The notes beneath the pieces are model-generated. The model was not told the DNA's origin, did not search any database, and was given only the letters and a program-made list of their open reading frames with translations. Positions 16,082 to 37,564 of a stretch of DNA of 64,000 bases are shown here, piece by piece. Positions within the stretch are counted from its first letter, which is position 1, and each line of letters opens with the position of its first letter. Position numbers and translations under genes: made by a program. Source of the DNA: Candidatus Latescibacterota bacterium (GTDB taxonomy: Bacteria; Latescibacterota; CBDEFO01); NCBI GenBank assembly GCA_965248755.1, contig OZ252149.1, forward strand, positions 1,888,001-1,952,000. Direction: 5' to 3'.

Positions 16082-16369
16082 CGTCCCTCCCGAAGCAATC
16101 TTCGGATATAACTGACAGATTGTAGGGGCGATCCCCGATTGACTCAATCGACGTCCACTCGCCCCGGGGCAGACACACGGGTCTGCCCCTACAACACATG
16201 TATATAGGACGAACCTATGTGTTCGCCCAGATAGACAAATCATCGCCTCTGAACGCCTCAGCCATTGCGAGGCTACCTACCCCCGAATTCTGACGCCTAC
16301 AGAGTAGGCGCTAATTCTATCGGGGGTTACTGTTTACTGTCTTGCCGTCCACTAAAAAAGGAGGACCTG

Positions 16370-19875: not shown

Positions 19876-19999
19876 AAGCGTCCAGTTCATAATGACCTAA
19901 ATTGAGTAACGTCATACTGTAGGGGGGAGGTCTGCCCCCGCAAGGTTGAATCAGGGGTCGTCCACTCGCCCCTGGACAATATCGCCTCTCTACGCCTCA

Positions 20000-20033
20000 G
20001 TCATTGCGAGGAGATTCACCCCGAAGCAATCTC
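20000..20033. repeat. REP-like family A (GTCATTGCGAG...CCGAAGCAATCTC)
   Basis: Further copies at 21880-21913, 32952-32985, ~35668-35695 (inverted), ~35712-35792, ~51282-51382; partial copies at ~9026, ~16090, ~16261, ~43296. Confidence 0.75.
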
Positions 20034-20098
20034 GCTTTTACCTTCTGAACTGTCAAGTTTGTTCACTGGCTGAACCTTAAAAACTGAAAGGAAGTGAC

Positions 20099-21829
20099 AT
20101 GCAATGCAACTATCTTTGCGCCATAAGTATTCTGTTTTGCATGGGGGCCGCTATGTTTGATGCCCCCTCTGCGGCAGAGGAACAGACCGAGATTCTGAAG
20201 ATCACAGTCGGCCAGCCGACCCACCTCAGCCGTCTCGTTTACCAGAACACGGCGTCTGTGATGGTGTCGCGCACGGGCGTCGTGGCGGCGTTCTATCCAA
20301 ATCTGGTGAGCAGGGGTCCGAAGAAATACCGGGTCTCTACCGACGGCGGGCACACATGGAGCCCGGAGATGAAAGGCCCGCCGCAGTTGGGGGGAGGCCA
20401 CGACAGCGGCACACTTCGAGACGGCGGCGTCATCATGGCGACTAACGATCCGCAGCTCTCGGCCAGTGGCAAAGAAGGCTGGTACGACGTCACGTTCGTG
20501 CGCTTTGCGGACGATATGCTCAGCTGGGAGTTCGAACTCGTCCAGATTTACCTGCCCAACGCCGGGCCGACCTCTCTGGACGTTAAAAACCCCGGCCTCT
20601 CAAAGGGCAAGATGGTGCAGCTTCCAAACGGCGACATGCTGGCGCCGATGTACGGAGGCTTCAAAGGCGACAGCGAAAATATCCATCGGGCGATCCTCGT
20701 CCGGTCAACAGATCAGGGACGCACCTGGGAGTTCTACGCCTCGATTGCATATGAGCCGGTGGATCCGCACCCGGAGCTTCCCGGCCAATATTGCGGCGCC
20801 GGAGAACCCAGCATCACGCTGTTGCCCAACGGAAAGATGGTGGCAATGCTGCGTACGCAATATTCGCACTTACCCAGCGAATACAAGCCCATGGCGGTGT
20901 GCTGGTCCGACGATCTGGGAGTGACATGGACTAAACCGGTAACTACCCAGCCGCACCTGTTGAACATCTCGCCAACGCTGGCGGCGCTGGACAACGGTGT
21001 GGTGGCCATCCAGTACGGTCGGCCGGGGTTTCATGTCGCCTTCAGCACGGACGACGGACATACATGGCGCGACCGTGTCAGCTTTTCCCATCTGCCCGAG
21101 CCTTTCATCACGGGTCAGTTCGACATGATCAAAGTCGGCCCCAACGAGCTGGTCGCTATCGGAAGCGACAAGGAAGGTGTGAAGGTGTGGCCGCTATCTG
21201 TTGAAAGGATCATGGTCTCGCCTGCGCGCGTCACTCTGACCGGCCGAGTGGTGGGTGAAGGACTTGCGCCGGTGGTGGGTGCGTTGGTCGAGCGAGGCCC
21301 CAACCGATATACGGCCGACGATTGGCTGGAGCACGCCACCAAATTGGGGCCATGGAAAGCAACCCCACTTACCATCGGCTCTCCGGCACTGGGATACAGA
21401 TCTATCCGAAAGGAGAACGGCTATCCAACAGTGCAGACGGACGAAGAAGGTGAGTTCCGGTTCGAGTCCGTCAAACTCGGCGAATATGTGCTGACAGTTG
21501 AAGCCGAGGGTTACGCCCCCGAGCAACGTCACATCAAGCTGGATCCGGAAGCCAGGCCGGAACACTTCAGGCTCAAGCCAGGGCAGCTCGTGCGCGGAAA
21601 GGTCGTGGATGAGCGCGGTAAAGCGGTAGGCGGCGTCTGCGTCGTGCTGAATCTCTGGCACTGCCATACCGACCCTGACGGATTCTACCACTGGTCGGTC
21701 GAACCCCCCGCGCCGGAGCAGGTGACCATGCGAGTCTACAAGCGGTACAGCGGTCAATACGAGACAGTCAAGGCAACAGTGCCGTTCTCGCAGCTGGAGC
21801 GCCAGCCGATCATTCTGCAGACCAGATAA
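20099..21829 (+). CDS. Exported BNR/Asp-box (sialidase-fold) protein with C-terminal carboxypeptidase-regulatory-like domains, paralogue 1
   Basis: Asp boxes STDGGHTW, STDQGRTW, SDDLGVTW, STDDGHTW; LTGRVV...TDEEGEFRF...GEYVLTVEAEGYAP. Confidence 0.8.
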   Translation: MQCNYLCAISILFCMGAAMFDAPSAAEEQTEILKITVGQPTHLSRLVYQNTASVMVSRTGVVAAFYPNLVSRGPKKYRVSTDGGHTWSPEMKGPPQLGGGHDSGTLRDGGVIMATNDPQLSASGKEGWYDVTFVRFADDMLSWEFELVQIYLPNAGPTSLDVKNPGLSKGKMVQLPNGDMLAPMYGGFKGDSENIHRAILVRSTDQGRTWEFYASIAYEPVDPHPELPGQYCGAGEPSITLLPNGKMVAMLRTQYSHLPSEYKPMAVCWSDDLGVTWTKPVTTQPHLLNISPTLAALDNGVVAIQYGRPGFHVAFSTDDGHTWRDRVSFSHLPEPFITGQFDMIKVGPNELVAIGSDKEGVKVWPLSVERIMVSPARVTLTGRVVGEGLAPVVGALVERGPNRYTADDWLEHATKLGPWKATPLTIGSPALGYRSIRKENGYPTVQTDEEGEFRFESVKLGEYVLTVEAEGYAPEQRHIKLDPEARPEHFRLKPGQLVRGKVVDERGKAVGGVCVVLNLWHCHTDPDGFYHWSVEPPAPEQVTMRVYKRYSGQYETVKATVPFSQLERQPIILQTR

Positions 21830-21957
21830 CTCGACAGCCAGATTTGGCGGTCAAGAAGGCAAAACACCTCTTACCTCCAGTCATTGCGAGGGGACTCGCT
21901 CCGAAGCAATCTCGGAGGAATTGTTCCTTGATTCCTTAGCCGATAGGACCAACAGAT

Positions 21958-23310
21958 ATGAGAGCATGTTCAAAAGTTTTCGTGATTGCATTCCTATCTT
22001 TGTCATTTGCTGGAAGTGCTTTTGCTCAAGATACATCATGGGTAGAAACATTATGGAAAGAAACATTGTGGAAAACAGTAATTGAAAAGGCAATAACACT
22101 CTACCAACAAGGTCAGTATGAGGAAGCAGTTGAGTTTGCCAAAGATGCTTTGAAAATAGCTGAGGAAAGTTTCGGTCCAGACCATCCCGATGTGGCGACC
22201 TCCTTGGACAATCTGGCGGGACTTTATCAAGCTCAGGGCAAGTATGCCGAGGCTGAGCCCCTTCAGAAGCGGGCACTGGCAATATGGGAGAAAGCTCGTG
22301 GAAAAGACCATCCCAGTGTGGCGGCCACCCTGAACAATCTGGCGTTACTTTACCAAACTCAGGGTAAGTATGTCGAGGCTGAGCCGCTTTACAAGCGAGC
22401 ACTGGAAATAGTAGAAAAAGCTCTTGGCCAAGACCATCCCGATGTGGCGACCTCCCTGAACAATCTGGCGGAACTTTACAGAGCTCAGGGCAAGTATGTC
22501 GAAGCTGAGCCCCTATACAAGCGGTCACTGGCAATATGGGAAGAAACCCTTGGCCAAGACCATCCTGATGTGGCTTACTCCCTGAGCGGTCTGGCGTTAC
22601 TTTACCAAGCCCAGGGCAAGTATGCCGAAGCTGAGCCGCTGTACAAGACAGCACTGGCAATAAGGGAAGAAGTCCTTGCCAAAGATCACCCCTATGTGGC
22701 GACTTCCCTGAACAATCTGGGGGCACTTTACCAAGCTCAGGGCAAGTATGCCGAGGCTGAGCCCCTGTACAAGAGAGCACTGGCAATATTGGAAAAAGCC
22801 CTTGGAAAAGACCATCCCGATGTGGCGCAATCCTTGAACAATCTGGCGTTACTTTATAAGACTCAGGGCAACTATGTCGAGGCTGAGCCCCTTTATAAGC
22901 GGTCACTGGCAATAATAGAAAAAGGCCTTGGAAAAGACCACCCCGATGTGGCGCAATTCCTGAACAATCTGGCGACACTGTATCATTCCCAGGGCAAGTA
23001 TGTCGAGGCTGAGCCCCTTCTCAAGCAAGCCTTGACAATATACGAGAAGGTCCTTGGAAAAGACCACCCCGATGTGGCGACCTCCGTAAATAATCTGGCG
23101 GAACTTTACAGAGCTCAGGGAAAGTATGCTGAAGCTGAGCCCCTTTACAAGCGGTCACTGGCAATATGGGAAAAAGCTCTTGGAAAAGACCATCCGCACG
23201 TGGCGACTGTGCTGGAGAATATGGTGGAGCCTTACGAGAAGATTGGAAAGGAAGATGAAGCCAAAAGTTTGGAAGAGCGTGCAGAAGGAATTCGTTCAAG
23301 AAACCAGTAA
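21958..23310 (+). CDS. Secreted 42-aa TPR (kinesin-light-chain-like) protein 1; 8 internal repeats
   Basis: Signal peptide AFA-Q, N-cap, 8 x HPxVAxSLNNLAxLYxxQGKY..., 39-aa C-cap ending RSRNQ. Confidence 0.95.
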   Translation: MRACSKVFVIAFLSLSFAGSAFAQDTSWVETLWKETLWKTVIEKAITLYQQGQYEEAVEFAKDALKIAEESFGPDHPDVATSLDNLAGLYQAQGKYAEAEPLQKRALAIWEKARGKDHPSVAATLNNLALLYQTQGKYVEAEPLYKRALEIVEKALGQDHPDVATSLNNLAELYRAQGKYVEAEPLYKRSLAIWEETLGQDHPDVAYSLSGLALLYQAQGKYAEAEPLYKTALAIREEVLAKDHPYVATSLNNLGALYQAQGKYAEAEPLYKRALAILEKALGKDHPDVAQSLNNLALLYKTQGNYVEAEPLYKRSLAIIEKGLGKDHPDVAQFLNNLATLYHSQGKYVEAEPLLKQALTIYEKVLGKDHPDVATSVNNLAELYRAQGKYAEAEPLYKRSLAIWEKALGKDHPHVATVLENMVEPYEKIGKEDEAKSLEERAEGIRSRNQ

Positions 23311-23415
23311 TGGCAATGCTGCCATCTTTTTCCCGCCGTGGTGAACGTGAACAGCAACGACAGCAATCTCGCAGGAACTCTTCGTTGATTCCTTGAACCG
23401 AAGGGAACACCAGAT

Positions 23416-25242
23416 ATGAAAGTATTTTCAAAAGTTTTCGTGATTGCATCCCTATGTTTGTCGTTTGCCGCAACTGCTTTTCCCCAAGAAACATCATGGG
23501 AAACACTAAACAAAAAGGTAACAAGACTCTACCAACAAGGTCGGTATGAGGAAGGTGTTAAGTTTGCCAAAGAGGCTTTGAAAATAGCTGAGGAAGCTTT
23601 CGGTCCAGACCATCCCCGTGTGGCAACCTCTCTGAACGCTCTGGCGTTACTTTATGATTCCCAGGGCAAGTATGTCGAAGCTGAGCCCCTTAACAAGCGA
23701 GCACTGGAAATAAGGGAAGAAGCCCTTGGAAAAGACCATCCTGCAGTGGCGCAATCCCTGAACAATCTGGCAGAGGTTTATCATTCTCAGGGCAAGTATG
23801 TCGAAGCTGAGCCCCTTCATAAGCACGCACTGGAAATAAGGGAAGAAGCCCTTGGAAAAGACCATCCCAATGTGGCGACCTCCCTGAACAATCTCGCGGG
23901 ACTCTACAAAGTGCAGGGCAAGTATGTCGAAGCTGAGCATCTTTATGAGCGGGCACTGGCAATATGGGAAAGAGCCCTTGGAAAAGACCATCCCAGAGTG
24001 GCGACCTCCCTGAACAATCTGGCATTGCTTTATAATACCCAGGGAAAGTATGCCGAGGCTGAGCCGCTTTACAAGCGAGCACTGACAATAAAGGAAGAAG
24101 CTCTTGGAAAAGACCATCCCTATGTGGCGACCTCCCTGAACAATCTGGGGAAACTTTATCATTCGCAGGGCAAGTATGTCGAGGCAGAACCTCTTTATAA
24201 GCGGTCATTGGCAATAGTAGAAAAAGCTCTTGGGAAAGACCATCCCTATGTAGCGCAATCCCTGAACAATCTGGCGGCACTTTACCAAGCTAATGGCAAG
24301 TATGCCGAGGCTGAGCCCCTTAACAAGCGGGCACTGGCAATATGGGAAAAAGCTCTTGGAAAAGATCATCCCGATGTGGCGACCTCACTGAACAATCTGG
24401 CGGAACTTTACAGAACTCAGGGCAGGTATATCGAGGCTGAGCCACTTTACAAGCGGTCACTGGCAATAGATGAGAAGGCACTTGGGAAAGACCATCCCAG
24501 TGTAGCAACCTCGCTGAACAATCTGGCGGGACTTTACAGAGATCAGGGAAAGCATGCCGATGCTGAGCCACTTTACAAGCGAGCACTGGCAATAAGGGAA
24601 GAAGCTCTTGGAAAAGACCATCCCGACATGGCGCAAGCCCTGCACAATCTGGCAGATCTTTACAGGTCTCAGCGCAAGTATGTGGAGGCTGAGCGACTTT
24701 ACAAGCGAGCACTGGCAACATACGAGAAGACCCTTGGAAAAGACCATCCTGGGGTGGCGACAGCCCTGGGTAATCTGGCGAACCTTTACAAGTCTCAGGG
24801 CAAGCATGTCGCGGCTGAGCCCCTTTACAAGCGGTCAATTGCAATATACGAGAAAGTCCTTGGAAAAGACCATCCCGAAGTTGCGACATCCCTGAACGAT
24901 CTGGCGGGACTTTACGAAGCCCAGGGTAAGTATGCCGATGCTGAGCCACTTTACAAGCGAGCACTGGCAATATACGAGAAATTTCTTGGAAAAGACCATC
25001 CCTATGTGGCGACATCCCTGCACAATCTGGCTGGACTTTACACGGCTCAGGGCAAGTATGTCGAGGCTGAGTCTCTTTACAAGAGAGCGCTGGAAATAAT
25101 CGAGAAAGCCCTTGGAAAAGACCACCCCAACCTGGCGACTACCCTCGCGAACATGGCAGATCTTTACAAGAAGATTGGAAAGAATGACGAAGGGAAAAGG
25201 TTGGAAGAGCGTGCAGAAGGTATTCGTTCAAGAAACCAATGA
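23416..25242 (+). CDS. TPR protein 2; 12 internal repeats
   Basis: 65 + 12x42 + 39 = 608 aa; signal FAATAFPQ. Confidence 0.95.
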   Translation: MKVFSKVFVIASLCLSFAATAFPQETSWETLNKKVTRLYQQGRYEEGVKFAKEALKIAEEAFGPDHPRVATSLNALALLYDSQGKYVEAEPLNKRALEIREEALGKDHPAVAQSLNNLAEVYHSQGKYVEAEPLHKHALEIREEALGKDHPNVATSLNNLAGLYKVQGKYVEAEHLYERALAIWERALGKDHPRVATSLNNLALLYNTQGKYAEAEPLYKRALTIKEEALGKDHPYVATSLNNLGKLYHSQGKYVEAEPLYKRSLAIVEKALGKDHPYVAQSLNNLAALYQANGKYAEAEPLNKRALAIWEKALGKDHPDVATSLNNLAELYRTQGRYIEAEPLYKRSLAIDEKALGKDHPSVATSLNNLAGLYRDQGKHADAEPLYKRALAIREEALGKDHPDMAQALHNLADLYRSQRKYVEAERLYKRALATYEKTLGKDHPGVATALGNLANLYKSQGKHVAAEPLYKRSIAIYEKVLGKDHPEVATSLNDLAGLYEAQGKYADAEPLYKRALAIYEKFLGKDHPYVATSLHNLAGLYTAQGKYVEAESLYKRALEIIEKALGKDHPNLATTLANMADLYKKIGKNDEGKRLEERAEGIRSRNQ

Positions 25243-25346
25243 TGGCAATGCTGCCATCTGTTTCCCGCCGTGGTGAACGTTAACAGCAACGACGGCAATC
25301 TCGGAGGAATTGTTCCTTGATTCCTTAGCCGATAGGAACAACAGAT

Positions 25347-26420
25347 ATGAGAGCATTTTCAAAAGTTTTCGTGATTGCATCCCTATGTTTGACCTTTGCC
25401 GCAAACTGCTCTTCCCCAGAAAGATCTGAATGGGAAAGACTAAACGAAAAGGCAGAAAGCCTCTACGAACAAGGTAGATATGAGGAAGCAGTTAAGTTTG
25501 CCAAAGAGGCTTTGCAAATAGCTGAGGAAAGTTTCGCTCCAGACCATCCCGAGGTGGCATTCCCCCTGAACAATCTGGCGGTACTATATAAGACTCAGGG
25601 CAAGTATGTCGAGGCTGAGCCACTTTATGAGCGAGCACTGGCAATTAGGGAAGAAGCCTTTGGAAAAGACCATCCCGATGTGGCGCAATCCCTGAACAAT
25701 CTGGCGGTACTTTATGATTCGCAGGGCAAGTATGCCGAGGCTGAGCCCCTTTACAAGCGGTCACTCGCAATATGGGAAAAAGCCCTTGGCAAAGACCATC
25801 CAGGTGTGGCAACCTCCCTGAACAATCTGGCGGTACTTTATGATTCGCAGGGCAAGTATGCCGAGGCTGAACCCCTTTATAAGCGTTCACTGGCAATATT
25901 GGAAGAAGCCCTTGGAAAAGACCATCCCGATGTGGCGCAATCTCTGAATAATCTGGCGTTACTTTATAAGACTCAGGGCAACTATGTCGAGGCTGAGCCC
26001 CTTTACAAGAGGTCACTGGCAATATTGGAAAAAGCCCTTGGAAACGATCACCCGTATGTGGCGACTTCCCTGAACAATCTGGCGGAACTTTACAGAACTC
26101 AGGGCAAGTATGACGACGCTGAGCCCCTTCATAAGCGAGCACTGGCAATAGGGGGAAAAACCCTTGGGAAAGACCACCCTGATGTCGCTAACTCCCTGAA
26201 CAATCTGGCGGCACTTTATTATTCTCAGGGCAAGTATGATGAGGCTGAGCCCCTTTACAAGCGAGCACTGGCAATAATGGAAAAAGCTCTTGGTAAAGCT
26301 CATCCTGATGTGGCGGATGTGTTGGAGAATATGTCAGAGCTTTACGAGAAGATTGGAAAGGAAGATGAAGCCAAAAGGTTGGAAGGGCGTGCAAGAGGAA
26401 TTCGTTCAAGAAACCAGTGA
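25347..26420 (+). CDS. TPR protein 3; 6 internal repeats; possible lipoprotein
   Basis: 66 + 6x42 + 39 = 357 aa; signal FAANCSS. Confidence 0.95.
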   Translation: MRAFSKVFVIASLCLTFAANCSSPERSEWERLNEKAESLYEQGRYEEAVKFAKEALQIAEESFAPDHPEVAFPLNNLAVLYKTQGKYVEAEPLYERALAIREEAFGKDHPDVAQSLNNLAVLYDSQGKYAEAEPLYKRSLAIWEKALGKDHPGVATSLNNLAVLYDSQGKYAEAEPLYKRSLAILEEALGKDHPDVAQSLNNLALLYKTQGNYVEAEPLYKRSLAILEKALGNDHPYVATSLNNLAELYRTQGKYDDAEPLHKRALAIGGKTLGKDHPDVANSLNNLAALYYSQGKYDEAEPLYKRALAIMEKALGKAHPDVADVLENMSELYEKIGKEDEAKRLEGRARGIRSRNQ

Positions 26421-26526
26421 TGGCAATGCGGCCATCTGTTTCCCGCAGTTATGAACGTGAACAGCAACGACGGCAATGTGAGCAGGAATTCTTCCTTGAT
26501 TCCTTGAACCGAAGGGAACACCAGAT

Positions 26527-27978
26527 ATGAGAGTATTTTCAAAAGTTTTCGTGATTGCATCCCTATGTTTGTCGTTTGCCGCAACTGCTTTTCCCCAAGA
26601 AACATCTGAATGGGAAAGACTAAACGAAAAGGCAACAACACTCTACGAACAAGGACAGTATGAGGAAGCGGTTAAGTTTGCCAAAGAGGCTTTGAAAATA
26701 GCTGAGGAAACTTTCGGTCCAGACCATCCCGATGTGGCGACCTCCCTGAACAATCTGGCGGAGTTTTACAGAACTCAGGGCAAGTATGTCGAGGCTGAGC
26801 CTCTTCACAAGCGGTCACTGGCAATAAGGGAGAAAGCCCTTGGCAAAGACCATCCTGATGTGGCGAACTCCCTGAACAATCTGGCGGGACTTTATGATTC
26901 ACAGGGCAAGTATGCCGAGGCTGAGCCACTTTACAAGCGGTCACTGGCAATAAGGGAGAAAGCCCTTGGCAAAGACCATCCTGATGTGGCGAACTCCCTG
27001 AACAATCTGGCGGGACTTTATGATTCACAGGGCAAGTATGTCGAGGCTGAGCCTCTTCACAAGAGGTCACTGGCAATAAGGGAGAAAGCCCTTGGCAAAG
27101 ACCATCCTGATGTGGCGACCTCCCTGAACAATCTGGGGGGACTTTATAAAACTCAGGGCAAGTATGTCGAGGCTGAACCGCTTTACAAGCGAGCACTGGC
27201 AATAGTAGAAAAAGCTCTTGGCAAAGGCCACCCCTATGTGGCGACCTCCCTGAACAATCTGGCGTTACTTTATGATTCTCAGGGCAAGTATGCCGAGGCT
27301 ATTCCCCTTCACAAGCGGGCACTGGCAATAAGGGAAGAAACCCTTGGCAAAGACCATCCCGATGTGGCGAACTCCCTGAACAATCTGGCGTTACTTTATG
27401 ATTCTCAGGGCAAGTATGCCGAGGCTGAACCGCTTTACAAGCGAGCACTGGCAATAGTAGAAAAAGCTCTTGGCAAAGACCACCCCTATGTGGCATTCCC
27501 CCTGAACAATCTGGCGTTACTTTATGATTCTCAGGGCAAGTATGCCGAGGCTGAACCGCTTTACAAGCGAGCACTGGCAATAAGGGAAGAAACCCTTGGG
27601 AAAGACCATCCCGATGTGGCGCAATCCCTGAACAATCTGGCGGAACGTTTCAGAACTCAGGGCAAGTATGCCGAAGCTGAACCCCTTTACAAGCGAGCAC
27701 TGGCAATATACGAGAAAGCTCTTGGGAAAGACCATCCCGATGTGGCGACCTCCCTGAACAATCTGGGGGGACTTTATAAAACTCAGGGCAAGTATGCTGA
27801 GGCTGAGCCCCTTGTTAAGCGAGCACTGGCAATAGTAGAAAAAGCTCTTGGGAAAGACCATCCGCACGTGGCGACTGTGCTGGAGAACATGGCAGTGTTC
27901 TACATAGAGATTGGAAAGGAAGATGAAGCAAAAAGGTTGGGGGAACGTGCACAAGGAATTCGTTCAAGAAACCAGTGA
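26527..27978 (+). CDS. TPR protein 4; 9 internal repeats
   Basis: 66 + 9x42 + 39 = 483 aa; signal FAATAFPQ. Confidence 0.95.
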   Translation: MRVFSKVFVIASLCLSFAATAFPQETSEWERLNEKATTLYEQGQYEEAVKFAKEALKIAEETFGPDHPDVATSLNNLAEFYRTQGKYVEAEPLHKRSLAIREKALGKDHPDVANSLNNLAGLYDSQGKYAEAEPLYKRSLAIREKALGKDHPDVANSLNNLAGLYDSQGKYVEAEPLHKRSLAIREKALGKDHPDVATSLNNLGGLYKTQGKYVEAEPLYKRALAIVEKALGKGHPYVATSLNNLALLYDSQGKYAEAIPLHKRALAIREETLGKDHPDVANSLNNLALLYDSQGKYAEAEPLYKRALAIVEKALGKDHPYVAFPLNNLALLYDSQGKYAEAEPLYKRALAIREETLGKDHPDVAQSLNNLAERFRTQGKYAEAEPLYKRALAIYEKALGKDHPDVATSLNNLGGLYKTQGKYAEAEPLVKRALAIVEKALGKDHPHVATVLENMAVFYIEIGKEDEAKRLGERAQGIRSRNQ

Positions 27979-28082
27979 TGGCAATGCGGCCATCTGTTTC
28001 CCGCAGTGGTGAACGTGAACGGCAACGACGGCAATCTCGGAGGAATTGTTCCTTGATTCCTTAGCCGATAGGAGCACCAGAT

Positions 28083-29030
28083 ATGAGAGTATTTTCAAAA
28101 GTTTTCGTGATTCCATTCCTATGTTTGACCTTTGCCGCAAACTGCTCTTCCCCAGAAACATCTGAATGGGAAAGACTAAACGAAAAGGCAACAAGCCTCT
28201 ACCAACAAGGTCAGTATGAGGAAGCAGTTAAGTTTGCCAAAGAGGCTTTGAAAATAGCTGAGGAAAGTTTCGGTCCAGACAAGCCCAATGTGGTGCAATC
28301 CCTGAACAATCTGGCGAGACTTTATTATTCTCAGGGCAAGTATGCCGAGGCTGAACCCCTTTACGCGCGAGCGCTGGCCATAGAGGAAGAAGCCCATGGA
28401 AAAGACCATCCCCACGTGGCCGCCTCCTTGAACAATCTGGCGGCACTTTATTATTCCCAGGGCAAGTATGCCGAGGCTGAACCCCTTTACGCGCGAGCGC
28501 TGGCCATAGAGGAAGAAACCCTTGGAAAAGAACATCCCGATGTGGCGACCTCCCTGAACAATCTGGGGGCACTTTACAGAGCTCAGGGCAAGTATGTCGA
28601 GGCTGAGCCCCTTTACAAGCGTTCACTGGCAATAAGGAAAAAAGCACTTGGCAAAGACCACCCTGATGTAGCGCAATTCCTGAACAATCTGGCGGAACTT
28701 TACAAAGCTCAGGGCAAGTATGTCGAGGCTGAGCCCCTTTATCAGCAAGCACTGGCAATAGTAGAAAAAGCTCTTGGAAAAGACCATACCAATGTGGCGT
28801 TCTGCCTGCTCGGTCTGGCGGAACTTTACAAAGACCAAAACAAGTATGCTGAGGCTGAGCCCTTTTTCAAGAGAGCACTGGCAATATACGAGAAGGCCCT
28901 TGGGAAAGACCATACCGATGTGGCGACTGTGTTGGAGAATCTGGCGGAGTGTTACAGGGAAATTGGAAAGGAAGATGAAGCCAAAAGGTTGGAAGAGCGT
29001 GCAGAAGGAATTCGTTCAAGAAACCAATGA
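28083..29030 (+). CDS. TPR protein 5; 5 internal repeats; possible lipoprotein
   Basis: 66 + 5x42 + 39 = 315 aa; signal FAANCSS. Confidence 0.95.
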   Translation: MRVFSKVFVIPFLCLTFAANCSSPETSEWERLNEKATSLYQQGQYEEAVKFAKEALKIAEESFGPDKPNVVQSLNNLARLYYSQGKYAEAEPLYARALAIEEEAHGKDHPHVAASLNNLAALYYSQGKYAEAEPLYARALAIEEETLGKEHPDVATSLNNLGALYRAQGKYVEAEPLYKRSLAIRKKALGKDHPDVAQFLNNLAELYKAQGKYVEAEPLYQQALAIVEKALGKDHTNVAFCLLGLAELYKDQNKYAEAEPFFKRALAIYEKALGKDHTDVATVLENLAECYREIGKEDEAKRLEERAEGIRSRNQ

Positions 29031-29135
29031 TGGCAACAGCGCCGTTCCCGCAACTGGAGCGCCAGGCGATCATCCTACAGAACAAATAACTCGATAGCCA
29101 GATTTGGCGGTCAAGAAGTACTGAAAGGAAGTGAC

Positions 29136-30842
29136 ATGCGATGCAACTATCTTTGCGCCATAGGTATTCTGTTTTGCATCGGGGGTGCCGCTGTGTTTGA
29201 TGTCCCCAATGCGGCAGAGGATGAAACCGAAATCCTCAAGATCACCGTCGGTAAGCCGACCCAGCTCAGCGATGAGGTTAATCAGAATACCGCGAGCGTG
29301 GCGGTCTCACGTACAGGGACGATCGCTGTATTCTATCCCAAGCAGGGCGAAGGGGCTAAGTACTATCGCATTTCAAACGACGGCGGTCAGACCTGGGACA
29401 AGGAACTGGACTTCCCTCCCGCATATGCAGGCCCCATGTCTGTAGACCTCCGCGAAGGTGGGGTCCTTTTTATGCAGCGCAAATCAAGGCACGAGCTAGA
29501 AGCCCAGCGCATACTCTTCTCTGACGATTTCCTGAAGTATGAAGTTGGCACCTCAGCGGTGTCCGTGCCAAATGCGGTTCTGCAAACGAAGTGGGCAGAG
29601 TTTTGGCCTTTCTTGGCCAAGGGAAAGATAGTCCAGTTGCCTAACGGTGATTTGCTGGGCACCATGTACGGGAACCTCAAAGGCGATACCCAGTATCGCA
29701 CCATGATCGCGCTATCCACGGACTTGGGCCGCAGTTGGGAGTATCATGCCACCGTTGCCTATAGCCCAGACGACCCGGATCCGGAATTGGCTGGCGGATA
29801 TTGTGGTTATTGCGAGCCAAGCCTGGCTTTACTATCCAACGGGCAACTCTTGTGCATAATGAGGACACAGGGAACGCAGTTTCCCGGCGAATATCGGCCA
29901 CTGTACCAGTGCTGGTCAGACGATCTAGGCAAGACATGGACCGAGCCAGTACTGAGCGAGCCGCACTTGATGAATATCTCGCCGACGCTGGCGGTATTGG
30001 ATAACGGCGTGCTGGCCTGTCAGTACGGCCGGCCAGGATTTCACGTTGCGTTCAGTCTGGACAATGGCCACACGTGGCAGGACCGCGTCAGCTTCTCGCA
30101 TCTGCCATGCGGTGTCATCACTGGCCAGTTTGACATGATCAAAGTCGGTCCGAACCGATTGTTGGCTATCGGGAATGATTCCGAAGGCACGAAGGTATGG
30201 CCATTGTCCGTTGACCGCGTGAAGGTATTAACCACCCACGGACGTCTTCATGGTCGTGTATTGGATGAACAGGGTAATCCGATTGCCAGTGCAGCGATCG
30301 AGCGCAGCCCCAACCGTTACACCGCCGACGACTGGCTGGATCACGAATCCAAGTTGGACTGGTGGGGAGCCGGGACTCCCGTGACGGTCGGTTCACCCAG
30401 CTTGGGATTCAGATCTATTCGACAGGGAAACGGCCATCCGACGGTGAAGTCGGATACAGAGGGTCGATTTGATTTTCATGATGTGCCATTGAGCGAATAC
30501 GTGTTGACCGTGGAAGCCGATGGTTACGCGCCTCAACAACGACACGTCAACATTCGGCCGCAGTCTCGGTCGCAGGATTTCAAACTCAAGACGGGCCGGC
30601 TTGTGCGCAGCCAGGTTGTGGATGAAACGGGCCGGGGGATTCCAGGGATATGTGTGATACTCAACAGATGGCACGTCCACACAGATCGAGCTGGCTACTT
30701 CCACTGGTCAGTAGAGTTTCCGCTGCCGCAGCAGGTGGAAATGAAGATCTACAAGCGGTACAGCGGTCAGTACGAGACATTGGAAACTACGGTCGCCCTA
30801 GCGCAGATCGAACGTCAGCCGATCACCTTGAAGAACAGATAA
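29136..30842 (+). CDS. BNR/sialidase-fold protein, paralogue 2
   Basis: Asp boxes SNDGGQTW, STDLGRSW, SDDLGKTW, SLDNGHTW; collinear with 20099-21829 and the same ACTGAAAGGAAGTGACATG leader. Confidence 0.8.
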   Translation: MRCNYLCAIGILFCIGGAAVFDVPNAAEDETEILKITVGKPTQLSDEVNQNTASVAVSRTGTIAVFYPKQGEGAKYYRISNDGGQTWDKELDFPPAYAGPMSVDLREGGVLFMQRKSRHELEAQRILFSDDFLKYEVGTSAVSVPNAVLQTKWAEFWPFLAKGKIVQLPNGDLLGTMYGNLKGDTQYRTMIALSTDLGRSWEYHATVAYSPDDPDPELAGGYCGYCEPSLALLSNGQLLCIMRTQGTQFPGEYRPLYQCWSDDLGKTWTEPVLSEPHLMNISPTLAVLDNGVLACQYGRPGFHVAFSLDNGHTWQDRVSFSHLPCGVITGQFDMIKVGPNRLLAIGNDSEGTKVWPLSVDRVKVLTTHGRLHGRVLDEQGNPIASAAIERSPNRYTADDWLDHESKLDWWGAGTPVTVGSPSLGFRSIRQGNGHPTVKSDTEGRFDFHDVPLSEYVLTVEADGYAPQQRHVNIRPQSRSQDFKLKTGRLVRSQVVDETGRGIPGICVILNRWHVHTDRAGYFHWSVEFPLPQQVEMKIYKRYSGQYETLETTVALAQIERQPITLKNR

Positions 30843-30888
30843 CTCGATAGCCAGATTTTCCACCGAAGAAGTACTGAAAGGAGTTGAT

Positions 30889-32763
30889 ATGCAATCCAAC
30901 CACTCTGTGACAAGCCGTGCTGGGGATGTGGATCCAGGCGCTCAACTGGTTGAGGAACTCCTGGCGCACCGCAGAACCGAAAAAGCGCGCTGGCAACCTA
31001 TGAGCTTTGATCTGGAGGATATGGCGATCCTCTCGTTGAATGCCTACACCCGTGCTCTGGATGAGAATTCAGATTACCTGCTGTGGATGGCGGCTTGGTA
31101 TGACCGCAGGCCGCTGGCCCAGCGGCATACACATAGCGACGGCAATCAGATGCCTAAGTACGCAGAAGGGATCGCCCTGATGCGCCTGATGACCGGCAGC
31201 ACGATGAACCGTGAAATCGATGCTAAGATATGGAAATGGATCGACGACCGTACCGGGGAAGACGGCCTGATTTACAAGCAACCGGGCCAGGCCGACGCGT
31301 ACGGTAATGGCAGAGCACTGCTGGCCCGCATCCTTGAGTACCGCTTGAGCGGTTCAGCCGGACAGCCAGATGCCATAGAAAAAACGATCGACACGCTGTG
31401 GGACAAGGTCTATGTGCAAGGTGATCGCGATGCGCCGGACAGCTATTGCATTTTCCCACGAGTCTGGGACGGCGGCTCGCAGGTCAATGCAGATACGGCG
31501 GACTGGCCTATCTATAACGCCTCGCTCATCCCTCCCATGGTCAAGTGGTACGAGATGACCGGCAGCGCCAGGGCATTGGAGCTGGCGCGATGGATGACCA
31601 ACAGTATTCTGCGCGGTGGCGAGATTGAAGAAGATGGCTCGTGGCAGGGCTGGTTCCATCCTTTCGTACACGCCGGAATGGCGATGCTTGAGTATGCCCG
31701 GGTGACTAAAGACGAAGTCTTATGCAAAAGGATGCGGGGCTTCTATGAAAGTGGGCGTAGCCAGGGAACGAGCCATGGTGTTTTTCCCGAACAGCCCGCC
31801 GGACTATGGGTTTCGAATATCGGCAATGAGGGATGCTGTACGGTGGATATGTGCAACATGGCGGCAACGCTTTCCCGCGCGGGTCTGGGCGATTATTGGG
31901 ACGATGTGGATCGCTATCTGAGGAATCAATTGACCGAGGCTCAGATGAAGAGAACCGATTTCCTCGAGCGGATTCCGAAAAGCAATATCGTCCACATTCC
32001 AATTCGCCCCGAGCTTCAGGAGGCGGAAATAGAGGATTTCACGCGGTACATCGGATCGCTGTCAGGGTGGGCAGCGCCAAACGATTATGCCAGCGCGGCC
32101 CATTTGTGGTTGCAGCAATGCTGTACGGGAAACATCGGGCGGGCGATTTATGCGGGCTTTGAGAGCATCGTCACACGGGAGGATAATCTCCATAAGATCA
32201 ATCTCCTCATCAACCGATCAACCAAGGAATTGGATATTGACAGCTATCTGCCTTGGGAGGGAAAGGTGGTTGTCAGTGTGAAGCACCCGGTCAAATTGGC
32301 CGTCCGCATGCCGCATTACGTGGCCCTTCAGGACGTCGTCACAAAGTTAAATGGCATGGCCATCAATCGGTCACTTTCCTGGAACGGAAGATATGTCCAA
32401 TTCTCCTGTAAGGCAGGGGACACAATCGAACTGCTCTTTGAGGTGCCTGAATACACACAAACGTTTGGGTGGCCCGGCCGTCCCGAACTCGTCCTGAAAC
32501 ATTCCATTACCGACGAGAATAGCGGCGGCGGAATGGAAAATCCTCGGACAGTTCTCGAAGCGAATAAGAACCCTGAATTGGTTAAAGAATTACTGGAGCC
32601 CGTTGAGTACAAGATTACGTATCGTGGAAACACGGTAGTGGACATTGACCCAAATGGGGCGATCTATCCGATCTACGAGCGCGATCACATGCGACTCGGA
32701 AAAGCTCCGATAAGCCGGTATGAACGATTCGTACCAACAGAGGATCTGGTCAATTGGCCTTGA
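30889..32763 (+). CDS. GH127/GH146-like (alpha/alpha)6 protein
   Basis: EGCC and QQCCTGN Cys motifs, YWDDVDRYLRNQL, SYLPWEGKV..LAVRMP C-terminal sandwich. Confidence 0.55.
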   Translation: MQSNHSVTSRAGDVDPGAQLVEELLAHRRTEKARWQPMSFDLEDMAILSLNAYTRALDENSDYLLWMAAWYDRRPLAQRHTHSDGNQMPKYAEGIALMRLMTGSTMNREIDAKIWKWIDDRTGEDGLIYKQPGQADAYGNGRALLARILEYRLSGSAGQPDAIEKTIDTLWDKVYVQGDRDAPDSYCIFPRVWDGGSQVNADTADWPIYNASLIPPMVKWYEMTGSARALELARWMTNSILRGGEIEEDGSWQGWFHPFVHAGMAMLEYARVTKDEVLCKRMRGFYESGRSQGTSHGVFPEQPAGLWVSNIGNEGCCTVDMCNMAATLSRAGLGDYWDDVDRYLRNQLTEAQMKRTDFLERIPKSNIVHIPIRPELQEAEIEDFTRYIGSLSGWAAPNDYASAAHLWLQQCCTGNIGRAIYAGFESIVTREDNLHKINLLINRSTKELDIDSYLPWEGKVVVSVKHPVKLAVRMPHYVALQDVVTKLNGMAINRSLSWNGRYVQFSCKAGDTIELLFEVPEYTQTFGWPGRPELVLKHSITDENSGGGMENPRTVLEANKNPELVKELLEPVEYKITYRGNTVVDIDPNGAIYPIYERDHMRLGKAPISRYERFVPTEDLVNWP

Positions 32764-33029
32764 AGGAGCAGTGGGAGAAGATCAATAACGTTGAACAGAG
32801 TCATTCTAAAACTCTTCTTCTACGCCTGACGGCGAATGATTCTATCGGGGCTTCATCCCTCTGGTCATTCTGAGGGGCTTCTTCCCTCTTTCTCAAGAGG
32901 GGCTTCACCCCGAAGCAAGCCCGCCTCTTACCTTGGCCCAGACTGAGCAACGTCATTGCGAGGCACTTCACCCCGAAGCAATCTCGGAGGAATTGTTCCT
33001 TGATTCCTTAGCCGATAGGAACACCAGAT

Positions 33030-35489
33030 ATGAGAGTATTTTCAAAAGTTTTCGTGATTGCATCCCTATCTTTGACCTTTGCCGTAAACTGCATTTCCCC
33101 AGAAAGATCTGAATGGGAAAGACTAAACGAAAAGGCAGAAAGCCTCTACGAACAAGGTCAGTATGAGGAAGCAGTTAACTTTGCCAAAGAGGCTTTGAAA
33201 ATAGCTGAGGAAAGTTTCGGTACAGACCATCCCAATGTGGCGACCTGCCTTAACAATCTAGCATACCTTTATCATTCCCAGGGCAAGTATGCTGAGGCTG
33301 AGCCCCTTTATAAGCGGTCACTGGCAATAAGGGAAAAAGCTCTTGGCAAAGACCATCCTGATGTGGCGGCATCCCTGAACAATCTAGCGGGACTTTATGA
33401 ATCTCAGGGCAAGTATGCCGAGGCTGAGCCCCTTTACAATCGGTCACTGGCAATAGTAGAAAAAGCTCTTGGCAAAGACCACCCCGATGTGGCGTCCCCC
33501 CTGAACAATCTGGCGGAACTTTACAGAGCTCAGGGCAAGTATGCCGAGGCTGAGCCCCTTAACAAGCAGGCACTGGCAATATGGGAAAAAGCCCTTGGAA
33601 AAGACCATCCCGATGTGGCGACCTCCCTGAACAATCTGGCGGTACTTTATGATTCCCAGGGCAAGTATGCCGACGCTGAACACCTTTATATGCGGGCACT
33701 GGCAATAATGGAAAAAGCCCTTGGCAAAGACCACCCTGATGTGGCGACCTCCCTGAACAATCTGGCGGAACTTTACAGAGCTCAGGGCAAGTATGTCGAG
33801 GCTGAGCCCCTTTACAAGCAGTCACTGGCAATATGGGAGAAAGCTCTTGGGAAAGAGCATCCCAGTGTGGCGACCTCCCTGAACAATCTGGCGTTACTTT
33901 ATGATTCCCAGGGCAAGTATGCCGGGGCTGAACCACTTTACAAGCGGGCACTGGCAATAAGGGAAAAAGCCCTTGGAAAAGACCATCCCAGTGTGGCGAC
34001 CTCCCTGAACAATCTCGCGGTACTATATAAGACCCAGGGCAAGTATGTCGAAGCTGAGCCCCTTCACAAGCGGTCACTGGCAATAAGGGAAGAAGCTCTT
34101 GGAAAAGACCATCCCGATGTGGCGACCTCCCTGAACAATCTGGCGGTACTTTATAAGACCCAGGGCAAGTATGTCGAGGCTGAGCCCCTTTATGAGCGGG
34201 CACTGGGAATATGGGAAGAAGCCCTTGGCAAAGACCATCCTGATGTAGCTTACTCCCTGAACAATCTGGCGGGTCTTTATAAGACCCAGGGCAAGTATGC
34301 CGAGGCTGATCCGCTTTACAAGCAGTCACTGGCAATAGTAGAAAAAGCCCTTGGAAAAGACCACCCTGATGTAGCTTACTCCCTGGACAATCTGGCGGGA
34401 CTTTATAAGACCCAGGGCAAGTATGCCGAGGCTGATCCGCTTTACAAGCAGTCACTGGCAATAAGGGAAGAAGCTCTTGGAAAAGACCATCCCGATGTAG
34501 CGCAATCCCTGAACAATCTAGCAAACCTTTATCGTTCCCAGTGGAAGTATGTCGAAGCTGGGCCACTTTACAAGCGATCACTGGCAATAAGGGAAGAAGT
34601 CCTTGGAAAAGACCATCCCGATGTAGCGCAATCCCTGAACAATCTGGCGGCACTTTATCATTCTCAGGGCAAGTATGCCGACGCTGAGCCCCTGCACAAG
34701 CGTGCTCTGACAATAATAGAGAAAACCCTTGGCAGAGACCATCCCCATGTGGCGGCCTCTTTGAACTGTCTGGCGGAACTTTATAAGACTCAGGCCAAGT
34801 ATGTCAAAGCTGAACCCCTTGTCAAGCGGTCACTGGCAATTTTGGAAAAATCCTTTCGCAAAGATCATCCTGCTATGGCAACCTCCCTGAATAATCTGGC
34901 GCTAGTTTATGCTTCTCAGGGCAAGTACGTCGAGGCTGAGCCTCTTTATAAGCGGGCACTGGCAATGAGGGAAGAAGTCCTCGGGCCAGACCACCCCCAT
35001 GTCGCGCAATGCCTGAGCAACCTGGGGGAACTTTATGATTCCCAGGGCAAGAATGCTGAGGCTGAGCCCCTTCTGAAGCGAGCACTGGGAATAAGGGAAG
35101 AAGCTCTTGGCAAAGACCATCCCTATGTGGCGACCTCCCTGAACAATCTAGCAAACCTTTATCGTTCCCAGGGCAAGTATGCCGAGGCTGAGCCACTTTA
35201 CAAACGGGCACTGGCAATATACGAGAAAGCTCTTGGAAAAGACCATCCCAAAGTAGCTTACTCCCTTAGCGGTCTAGCGGAACTTTACAAAGATCAGGGC
35301 AAGTATGTCGATGCTGAGCCCCTTCTGAAGCGAGCACTGGGAATAAGGGAAGAAGCTCTTGGCAAAGACCATCCCTATGTGGCGACTGCGTTGGAGAATA
35401 TGGCAGTGCTCTACATAGAGATTGGAAAGGAAGATGAAGCCAAAAGGTTGGGGGAACGTGCAGAAGGAATTCGTTCAAGAAACCAATGA
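33030..35489 (+). CDS. TPR protein 6; 17 internal repeats; possible lipoprotein
   Basis: 66 + 17x42 + 39 = 819 aa; signal FAVNCIS. Confidence 0.95.
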   Translation: MRVFSKVFVIASLSLTFAVNCISPERSEWERLNEKAESLYEQGQYEEAVNFAKEALKIAEESFGTDHPNVATCLNNLAYLYHSQGKYAEAEPLYKRSLAIREKALGKDHPDVAASLNNLAGLYESQGKYAEAEPLYNRSLAIVEKALGKDHPDVASPLNNLAELYRAQGKYAEAEPLNKQALAIWEKALGKDHPDVATSLNNLAVLYDSQGKYADAEHLYMRALAIMEKALGKDHPDVATSLNNLAELYRAQGKYVEAEPLYKQSLAIWEKALGKEHPSVATSLNNLALLYDSQGKYAGAEPLYKRALAIREKALGKDHPSVATSLNNLAVLYKTQGKYVEAEPLHKRSLAIREEALGKDHPDVATSLNNLAVLYKTQGKYVEAEPLYERALGIWEEALGKDHPDVAYSLNNLAGLYKTQGKYAEADPLYKQSLAIVEKALGKDHPDVAYSLDNLAGLYKTQGKYAEADPLYKQSLAIREEALGKDHPDVAQSLNNLANLYRSQWKYVEAGPLYKRSLAIREEVLGKDHPDVAQSLNNLAALYHSQGKYADAEPLHKRALTIIEKTLGRDHPHVAASLNCLAELYKTQAKYVKAEPLVKRSLAILEKSFRKDHPAMATSLNNLALVYASQGKYVEAEPLYKRALAMREEVLGPDHPHVAQCLSNLGELYDSQGKNAEAEPLLKRALGIREEALGKDHPYVATSLNNLANLYRSQGKYAEAEPLYKRALAIYEKALGKDHPKVAYSLSGLAELYKDQGKYVDAEPLLKRALGIREEALGKDHPYVATALENMAVLYIEIGKEDEAKRLGERAEGIRSRNQ

Positions 35490-35797
35490 TGGCAACAGCG
35501 CCGTTCTCAGAGCTGGAAAGACAGCCGATCATCCTGCAGAACAGATAACTCCACAGACAGACATAGTCCGCCGCATCTCTACGGGAAGTCCCCGAGTGCT
35601 TCTATCGGGGACGTGTGCCTACCCCTGGGGCGAGTGAACCTCGCCCCTACATTCTATCTACTCAAAAGAGATTGCTTCGCTTCGCTCGCAAGGACAATTC
35701 ATTTTACCAAGGTCATTGCGAGGGGGCCTGCCCCGGAATGATTGATCCCCGAGCCCCCCGATAGATTCAATCGGGGGTTAAGTCGCAATCTCGCCGC

Positions 35798-37564
35798 TTA
35801 CTGCCGCGCGGTGACCGGCCAGATCGGATCGAGCTGCCAGGCGTCCAGCGAGACGAGCGTCGCATCGCCGCCGCGGGCGAACACGTCGATGCCCTTGCTG
35901 TCCGCTCGCGTCGGGTACACCCGCTGCGTCATGCAGAAACGCTTGTTCGGGAAGACCTCGACCATCGATCGATCGACAAACACGTGAAGCTCAAGCAGCT
36001 CATCGTCGGGCAGATCCAGGTCGCCGCTGTACACCGGCAGGTTCGGGTAACTACCGGCCTTTCTCATGACCAGCGTTTCGGGGTCGAGGCTTGCGTGGGT
36101 CTGATCGGCGATGAACTCTCTCTTCTTGCGGTCGTAGATGAATAGCGTCTGCTCCTTGCGGTCGGGCGAACAGAGAACCTTAATGCCGACGGCATCAGCG
36201 TCACCGGGGTCGATCACCGCGATGATCTCCAGCATATCTCCCTGCGGATCGGGTACGAAGTTCGATCCGGATTCGGTAATCGGCATCCGCTCGTACTGCC
36301 AGTGCTTCCGCCGCAGACTCTTGAGTTCCTCCACCGGCTCCTGGCCTAATGTGCCGTCGGGTCGCAGCGTGAGCATGCGGGGCAAAGAGTAGATGTTACT
36401 CCACCACTCGATGGGCGTTTTGTTCTCCGGATCCTCCTTGGAGAGCCACTCATTCTCCTGTCCCAGGTCTGCCGCTTCGTCTCTGGCGCGGTACCACGGG
36501 CTGTTACCCTCCCAGACCAGGCCGAAGATGATTCGCCTATTCTTGTCATCCTCGAAGCTCATAGCACAGCCGTAATAGCCGCCGGGGTCCAGAACAAACG
36601 CTTCGGATTCAGGGATGAAGCGATGATCCGAAAAACGGCCGATCCATCCCATCTCCTGCGTCATATCGAAAGCCTTTGGGTTGTCCCACTGCTCGCGGCC
36701 ATCTGCGGGCTTCTTCGGATAGGCGGTGATCAGTAGCACGTGTTTATCGCCCAACTTAAACATGTGCGACATGTCCCACTGTTCGCCGGAGACGGCGGGT
36801 GATTTGCCTTTCAGCAGAGGGTTGAGGTATCTCCAGTTCACCAGATCGTCGGATTGGAAGAGATAGGTAGTGCCGACGTTCTGCCCGGCGTCGTTCTGCG
36901 CACCGCCGGCCTTCCCACCGATCAGCGCGTACCAGGTCTGATCGTCCTCGTCCCACCAGGCGAACACATCCAGGTTAAGACGCTCTTCATCGGCGCACCT
37001 TTCCGGGATCACGGGGTTATCAGGGTGGCGCTTCCAGGTGACCATGCCGTCGTCACTTGTGGCTATGCTCTTGCAGCGGATTCTGGCCGAAGTGTATATG
37101 ATGGTGGGCACGCCGTTATTGATCACCGTCGAGCCGGTATAGATCCCGGCGTTGTCATAGCCATGAGGACCGTTCTCATCCTGCGGCGCCAGTGCTATGG
37201 GAAGGTCGTGCCAGTGAACCAGGTCCTCGCTGACGGCGTGCCCCCAGCTTTCGCTCGGACCCGAGGGCTCCTCCGAGGGCTTCGCACCGTGGGGTGCTGT
37301 CAGATAGAACAGGTGGTATCGGCCGTCGAACTGAATCGGTCCCTCCACGTCCCACCCGTAGCCGGTCGGTGGCAGGAAGTGGTACCCGGGTCTGTGCGGA
37401 TCACCCGCCAGCTTTTCCCGAACCGGGTGAATGCATTCGGGGAAGACGGACAGGAAATTCGGCCCGACGTAGTCTTGCTTATCAGCGTTGAGCCAAGCGG
37501 CCAGGTGCGGAAAGAGCTTTGAGTCCTTGGCTGTCTGTTGTGAGCGGTTACTGGGTATCTTCAT
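35798..37564 (-). CDS. Glycoside hydrolase family 32-like protein (divergent catalytic motifs)
   Basis: RPGYHF.P, YHLFY, WGHAVSEDLVHW, YTGS, SLPR, FVDRSMVEVF, TQRVYP. Confidence 0.88.
   Translation of the reverse strand: MKIPSNRSQQTAKDSKLFPHLAAWLNADKQDYVGPNFLSVFPECIHPVREKLAGDPHRPGYHFLPPTGYGWDVEGPIQFDGRYHLFYLTAPHGAKPSEEPSGPSESWGHAVSEDLVHWHDLPIALAPQDENGPHGYDNAGIYTGSTVINNGVPTIIYTSARIRCKSIATSDDGMVTWKRHPDNPVIPERCADEERLNLDVFAWWDEDDQTWYALIGGKAGGAQNDAGQNVGTTYLFQSDDLVNWRYLNPLLKGKSPAVSGEQWDMSHMFKLGDKHVLLITAYPKKPADGREQWDNPKAFDMTQEMGWIGRFSDHRFIPESEAFVLDPGGYYGCAMSFEDDKNRRIIFGLVWEGNSPWYRARDEAADLGQENEWLSKEDPENKTPIEWWSNIYSLPRMLTLRPDGTLGQEPVEELKSLRRKHWQYERMPITESGSNFVPDPQGDMLEIIAVIDPGDADAVGIKVLCSPDRKEQTLFIYDRKKREFIADQTHASLDPETLVMRKAGSYPNLPVYSGDLDLPDDELLELHVFVDRSMVEVFPNKRFCMTQRVYPTRADSKGIDVFARGGDATLVSLDAWQLDPIWPVTARQ

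Follow-up and report, generated by a model that had tools for sequence, protein, structure and literature searches.

How does a family of exported proteins come to carry two kinds of leader peptide that would send its members through different signal peptidases? This question is raised by a 64,000-nucleotide stretch of a Candidatus Latescibacterota bacterium (assembly GCA_965248755.1, contig OZ252149.1, positions 1,888,001 to 1,952,000; hereafter the window), which holds six genes for proteins built from 42-residue tetratricopeptide repeats (TPR) of the kinesin light chain (KLC) type, five of them forming a tandem array at 21958-29030 and the sixth lying at 33030-35489 (Table 1). With a seventh copy elsewhere in the same genome (G000), four TPR copies have a leader with a cysteine and three have a plain leader. 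By comparison within this family and with a sister genome of the same genus (G001), we find that the two leaders are related by a compensating pair of single-base indels, which replaces the -1 alanine of a signal peptidase I (SPase I) site with a cysteine, Cys21. We consider this cysteine a probable, though far from certain, lipidation site for SPase II.

A pair of opposite indels relates the two leaders

The 21-nucleotide leader segments of genes 2 to 6 all stand where the original prediction placed them, and the extra A and the missing A about 14 nucleotides later that it described are exact. Without gaps, the six Cys-type segments (four from G000, two from G001) differ from genes 2 and 4 at 7-9 of 21 positions; adding one base after GCA A (codon 20) and dropping one 14 nucleotides later (codon 24) lowers this to 1-2 of 21. 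Outside the re-framed stretch, a comparison of Cys-type copies with genes 2 and 4 gives only 3-6 mismatches in the 54 positions on one side and 6-16 in the 120 on the other, and with flanks so similar the indel pair is no chance alignment. Assembly error is ruled out because the same register occurs in six copies from two independently assembled genomes. The two changes are opposite and non-triplet (+1/-1) and together restore the frame, as in a compensatory frameshift pair, while either one alone leads to a stop 8-25 codons on. Codons 20-24 are re-framed as a result: ACT GCT is read one base earlier, giving TGC, and the -1 Ala of the A19-T-A21 site becomes Cys, at residue 21 and not at residue 20 as first numbered.

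An alternative alignment, in which the added A is paired with the loss of a T from the T5 run of the AFS form in G001, needs one event more than the +A/-A pair and was set aside. Template switching was also considered as the source of the extra A: at window positions 25396-25409, in the leader of gene 3, the plain allele has a short quasi-palindrome, GTTTG-CCG-CAAAC, that becomes perfect with the extra base. Such an origin is possible and indistinguishable from slippage in AA.

The original prediction had presented the pair as a switch. A programmed or reversible mechanism, by phase variation or ribosomal slippage, that toggles one gene between both leaders might exploit the short runs within the re-framed stretch (T4-5, C3-4, A2-3), and the decoupling of leader type from C-terminal ancestry described below would suit it. 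However, two opposite indels are needed, and because either alone hits a stop the pair cannot act as a toggle. Moreover, both species have fixed the same pair of registers, and none of 17 N-termini has a single-indel leader, save one broken copy that lacks a leader and is frameshifted further on. Contigs from four sequencing runs carry no weight here, since none of the pieces listed spans a leader closely enough to give its allele. Toggling of this kind is therefore extremely unlikely, and the two forms are better described as alleles fixed in separate genes.

Origin and spread of the Cys leader

Full-length matches to the N-terminus were confined to G000 and G001 in a protein search of 41 genomes, and a DNA search of five related genomes found the leader in G001 only. 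The ten N-termini of G001 comprise two of Cys type, two plain (both ATAFSQE) and six without a leader. Both Cys-type leaders (AAKC-FSPE and AVNC-FSPE) lie at the orthologous locus, between a BNR-repeat gene and a gene for a 624-residue protein. In the six leaderless copies, several of which lie in broken genes, the hydrophobic region (h-region) is deleted. It is cleanly gone behind the same ribosome-binding site and start, which puts these copies in a class of their own, the third, which is non-Sec; no fewer than two separate deletions are involved, and several copies are frameshifted (L017 at 5865, 10097, about 14760 and about 16100; L018 at 5928; L019 at 6955, minus strand). A metagenome search with the 21-nucleotide leader pattern gave 45 loci, none encoding a TPR relative; an exact-sequence look-up of the six window TPR proteins in the collection matched none of them; and a homologue search with residues 1-75 of gene 3 gave three matches, all repeat-only and without a leader of the gene 3 type.

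Leaders ending in AxA/S-Q are found in gene 1 (AFA↓QD, the arrow marking cleavage), in the two plain G001 copies (AFS↓QE) and in distant relatives with the same N-terminal cap (P0106, P0178, P0198 and P0237). With these sequences as outgroups, the ancestral leader is a plain SPase I signal (AxA/S↓Q). Among 150 representatives, 66 have a hydrophobic N-terminus, and a lipobox pattern flags four, two of which look convincing, so that predicted lipoprotein versions of the same TPR type occur elsewhere as well.

The third base of codon 16 is C in all six Cys copies and G or A in all five plain copies, and a Glu28 codon insertion is common to gene 4, which is plain, and the Cys-type genes. Monophyly of the Cys copies was not rejected for the N-terminal segment (approximately unbiased test, p=0.39, which is no proof of a clade) and was rejected for the C-terminal cap (p=0.001). 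The simplest reading is that the Cys leader probably arose once and then recombined onto other gene bodies; recombination between repeat bodies is expected in any tandem-repeat array.

The sequences show the change itself: one copy of a tandem TPR array gained an A in codon 20 and lost one in codon 24, so that the last base of codon 20, T, came to be read together with the first two bases of the Ala21 codon as TGC, with loss of the strong AxA sites and a Cys at the end of the h-region. Since either indel alone gives a stop, the single-indel intermediate was presumably null and survived under the shelter of redundant paralogues. Such an event would have been single and would predate the split of the two species, after which the Cys leader may have been duplicated and recombined onto different repeat bodies. 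If the Lgt of the genus tolerates Asn or Lys at -1, genes 3, 5, 6 and 7 would now encode lipid-anchored TPR binding scaffolds and genes 1, 2 and 4 soluble periplasmic ones.

As for possible starting points of such a change, 127 of the 448 Cys-less leaders in G000 hold a latent TGC at an Ala codon of the c-region. A genome-wide scan for further indel pairs in paralogous leaders gave, among the matches listed, mostly spurious gaps in alignments of 65-80%.

Is Cys21 lipidated?

The Cys leaders have a basic n-region (R2/K6, with Asn6 in place of Lys6 in gene 7), a hydrophobic stretch V7-A19, Cys21 and a hydrophilic sequence afterwards, and lgt, lspA, lnt, lolA and bamA are all present in the host genome. 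The plain leaders have an AxA-type site after the h-region, A21-F-A23↓Q24 in gene 1 and A19-T-A21↓F22 in genes 2 and 4; the second SPase I site of genes 2 and 4 is presumably spoiled by Pro23. To score the surroundings of the cysteine, we used a matrix trained on the 79 canonical lipoboxes of the genome with the -1 position left out. The C-S-S forms (genes 3, 5 and 7) fall at the 49th-67th percentile of these canonical sites, gene 6 and the two G001 Cys copies at the 19th-20th, and all score at the 79th-99th percentile of non-Cys boundary sites.

At -1 the Cys leaders depart from the classical residues, and here the rest of the genus is informative. In a catalogue of leaders made of an h-region plus a Cys, 81 of 111 candidates have G, S or A at -1. 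Four odd cases were examined for membership of a real lipoprotein family, and three held. The CLNC protein (G000:C1:2917216) has Asn at -1; a 64%-identical paralogue has PLSC, and the 14 homologue loci examined, from a search that matched 37 other genomes, all carry A, G or S there. Serpins have Gln at -1 in all four copies of the genus; outside it, 26 leaders from 25 of 28 loci are readable, and every one of them has G, A or S. The LFRC protein has Arg at -1 in both G000 and G001; 69 of its 87 matches can be anchored, one of these is the sister orthologue and the other 68 carry A, G or S, while the 18 unanchored matches are mostly truncated or read G-C-R. The fourth case, an HFNC protein, was dropped as an Asn control: nine homologues outside the genus lack the Cys, and it scores below all 79 canonical sites.

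The loci with relaxed -1 residues (Asn, Gln, Arg and, in an NHL-repeat protein, possibly Tyr) lie at G000:C1:2917216, 2625440, 2544324 and 1082853, all on the plus strand, and recall those of Leptospira; the other Latescibacterota homologues examined keep a canonical residue. The Lgt of G000 reads R-I-G-C-F-L-N-G-C-C-F-G, which we take to fall outside signature PS01311 and to which we give little weight; its motif type is widespread.

Taken together, the context scores and the -1 residues of the genus favour the original division of labour, in which plain leaders are cut by SPase I and Cys leaders by SPase II, the second half standing as probable only. We therefore regard Cys21 as probably lipidated and the Cys copies as probably lipid-anchored, with moderate confidence. 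The idea that the plain products are released finds no support: the host is a diderm (BamA and LolA are present), in which an SPase I product would be periplasmic by default.

Several observations weigh against lipidation. The classical lipobox is [LVI][ASTVI][GAS]C, and the Cys leaders depart from it with Ala at -3 and Asn at -1 (Lys in one G001 copy), as had been pointed out for FAANC from the start. Outside the TPR proteins, a boundary-zone Asn precedes Cys in 2 of 66 instances, one of the two being HFNC, and Gly does so in 40 of 279. The -3 residue of the three control families is larger (F/I, C and L) than the Ala of the TPR leaders, and Ala stands at -3 in 6 of the 79 canonical sites; judged by sequence, the TPR leaders thus combine two weak lipobox positions, -3 and -1. 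Three Cys copies have a Pro in the h-region. Selection on Cys21 was not detectable in the six Cys copies: 14 of 24 leader codons are invariant across them and the Cys does not stand out from its neighbours in conservation, so its invariance is uninformative. For the control proteins, lipidation is likewise deduced from their homologues. In E. coli, SPase I is reported to have processed beta-lactamases of myxobacteria that had been predicted to be lipoproteins (PMC13616975). Cys14 (IASLC), the other candidate, was rejected as a lipidation site; it sits in the middle of the h-region with Leu at -1, and both leader forms have it.

The departure from the -1 rule and the lack of detectable selection would also be expected if the Cys had arisen by neutral drift and carried no lipid, with SPase I cutting a weaker site and all copies soluble in the periplasm. 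Fallback sites are available at T16-F-A18↓A19 or A19-N-C21↓S22, both presumably permitted by the (-3,-1) rule, and a loosely constrained c-region would have tolerated the pair. Such laxity agrees with the variation among leaders (Pro11, A-F-P in genes 2 and 4, Lys at -1), with the broken and leaderless copies in G001 and with the clustering of compensatory frameshift pairs near gene ends reported in a survey of animals (PMC8935012). On the other hand, drift does not readily account for Asn, Gln or Arg at -1 in three unrelated lipoprotein families of the genus, for a Cys context so far above most non-Cys boundary sites, or for the spread of the Cys leader, now carried by four of seven copies in G000 and by the two that G001 has at the orthologous locus. 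We consider it possible but unlikely.

It could also be argued that the leader of the Cys-type proteins is not cleaved at all and holds them in the inner membrane as an N-terminal signal anchor; soluble and anchored forms would then truly exist, the Cys being incidental. Both A19-T-A21 and A21-F-A/S23 are destroyed, and Pro24, following C21-x-S23, presumably blocks SPase I. However, a hydrophobic stretch of about 13 residues (V7-A19) is short for a stable anchor, the fallback SPase I sites exist, and the Cys that Lgt would encounter has suitable surroundings, which makes this arrangement very unlikely.

The repeat bodies and their locus

Tandem 42-residue repeats matched TPR_10/TPR_12 above the Pfam cut-off in genes 1, 2, 3 and 5, the four that were scanned. 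Across 115 repeats from 15 genes, positions 4, 7, 14, 17, 18 and 36 are highly variable (2.3-3.2 bits) on a nearly fixed scaffold. The TPR domain of KLC1 matches with an E value of 4e-67 and the bacterial BKLC (PDB 5o01) with 4e-21, and, as with these KLC TPR domains, the pattern fits scaffolds that bind peptides and have diversified in specificity. The original prediction saw one scaffold in two forms; the bodies instead belong to different genes, with 5-17 counted repeats that differ from each other at the variable positions.

Table 1. Coordinates of the TPR genes, their leader segments and the associated repeats (window positions unless a contig is given).
Feature	Position	Strand	Remarks
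REP-like dispersed repeat	21880..21912	+	Just upstream of gene 1
TPR gene 1	21958..23310	+	450 residues; plain leader, canonical A-F-A↓Q SPase I site; TPR_12/TPR_10
Gene 1 codons 19-25, GSAFAQD	22012-22032	+	Canonical plain form
TPR gene 2	23416..25242	+	608 residues; plain leader A-T-A-F-P-Q-E at 23470-23490
Latent out-of-frame TGC in gene 2 leader	23475-23477	+	
TPR gene 3	25347..26420	+	357 residues; re-framed leader F-A-A-N-C21-S-S-P-E at 25401-25421; Cys codon 25407-25409
TPR gene 4	26527..27978	+	483 residues; plain leader A-T-A-F-P-Q-E at 26581-26601
TPR gene 5	28083..29030	+	315 residues; Cys leader A-N-C-S-S-P-E at 28137-28157; Cys codon 28143-28145; Pro11 in h-region
BNR-repeat gene 3'-end remnant	29032..29118	+	After gene 5; blastn 90% over 87 nucleotides
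REP-like dispersed repeat, second copy	32952-32984		Upstream of gene 6
TPR gene 6	33030..35489	+	819 residues; Cys leader F-A-V-N-C21-I-S-P-E (segment V-N-C-I-S-P-E at 33084-33104); Cys codon 33090-33092
BNR-repeat gene 3'-end remnant	35491-35561		After gene 6; blastn 86% over 71 nucleotides
TPR gene 7 (seventh copy)	G000:C1:955608	-	Cys leader AANC; outside the window

Two short remnants behind genes 5 and 6 match the 3' end of the BNR-repeat gene upstream of the array and may mark places where the borders of the array recombined unequally. In G001 the orthologous locus holds two TPR genes, and the order of its BNR genes is different; because of this difference and the remnants, we infer that the TPR array expands and contracts by recombination. 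The REP-like repeat (GTCATTGCGAG...GAAGCAATCT) was probably the recombination point of the gene 6 duplication. It also occurs at 20000-20032, and its pattern has 135 matches genome-wide.

The neighbours of the array encode exported BNR-repeat, DUF6259, FGE-sulfatase-like and GH32 proteins. Upstream of it, DUF6259 and FGE-sulfatase-like exported paralogues alternate in tandem (9121, 12660 and 16370, that is G000:C1:1893362-1904370, and 15068-19875); at a leader position with Phe in the other DUF6259 copies, one copy reads L-S-T-C. The 624-residue open reading frame at 30889-32763 has no Pfam or NCBIfam match and about 97% DNA identity in G001. An Rfam scan of 19500-36500 gave nothing at E<=1. 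A 211-nucleotide stretch has 87 blastn matches, several of them 100% identical, and is probably an insertion sequence (loci include G000:C1:862544, 891502, 2591582 and 4080894).

Significance and comparison with known systems

If Cys21 is lipidated, the pair would show with unusual clarity that a compensatory frameshift can be more than tolerated and can give rise to a new function, here a lipid anchor, and the genus would be a Latescibacterota example of a Leptospira-like relaxed lipobox, which would affect lipoprotein prediction there. The route from SPase I to SPase II processing would be short, since xxT GCN need only be read as TGC. Because parent and derived alleles stand side by side, the idea is testable by one reporter fusion. 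A wider view is distinctly doubtful: the genus might keep selected, variable TPR binders, with recombination joining hypervariable bodies to soluble, lipid-anchored and leaderless leader modules, and with Ala-rich SPase I sites one indel pair away from a lipobox.

Mixed localisation among paralogues is ordinary, because another family of G000 has both SPase I and canonical lipoprotein leaders. In this family, marked by a DLDGDGDNDL motif and in our view FG-GAP-like, AxA-Q leaders and LMAGC leaders occur, apparently by leader replacement (G000:C1:2987322 and 3083603 versus 1880923, 4284935 and others, those named all on the minus strand). Frameshift pairs and changes of signal type among paralogues are both already known, and no new system is described here. 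No report of a frameshift pair turning an SPase I alanine into a lipobox cysteine was found in a literature search of incomplete coverage that excluded supplements.

The TPR proteins resemble those of kinesin light chains (KLC1/KLC2 structures, BKLC) in their 42-residue repeats with a DHPxVAxSLNNLA motif, and differ from them in that they are exported, stand alone and have neither an enzyme domain nor a coil that binds kinesin. The original prediction likened them to secreted and membrane-bound antibodies. In antibodies, regulated RNA processing makes both isoforms from a single gene and the binding site stays the same, whereas each TPR form is a gene of its own, with a fixed leader, a different repeat body and a different binding surface; what is left of the likeness is, loosely, that a variable binder has a soluble and an anchored version.

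The relaxed lipobox has its closest parallel in spirochaetes, where, as presented in one account, Asn stands at -1 of experimentally verified lipoproteins, Leptospira has Gln, Tyr or charged residues opposite canonical orthologues, and its Lgt lacks the PS01311 signature (PMC4758666). The genus described here belongs to another phylum, the closest relatives of its RpsC being labelled Ca. Latescibacterota, and its relaxed lipoboxes are predicted ones. The acquisition or disappearance of signal peptides among bacterial orthologue groups has been attributed to indels of whole leaders or to point changes (PMC5952966), and the six leaderless G001 copies are of the first kind; the main text of that study does not use the word frameshift, and conversion from SPase I to SPase II signals does not appear to be treated there. 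Finally, a survey of vertebrates and insects records compensatory frameshift pairs clustered near gene ends, where opposite indels re-frame a short stretch and create new residues (PMC8935012). The TPR pair has the same form, but it is bacterial, it lies among paralogues, and its new residue plausibly alters the processing pathway of the protein.

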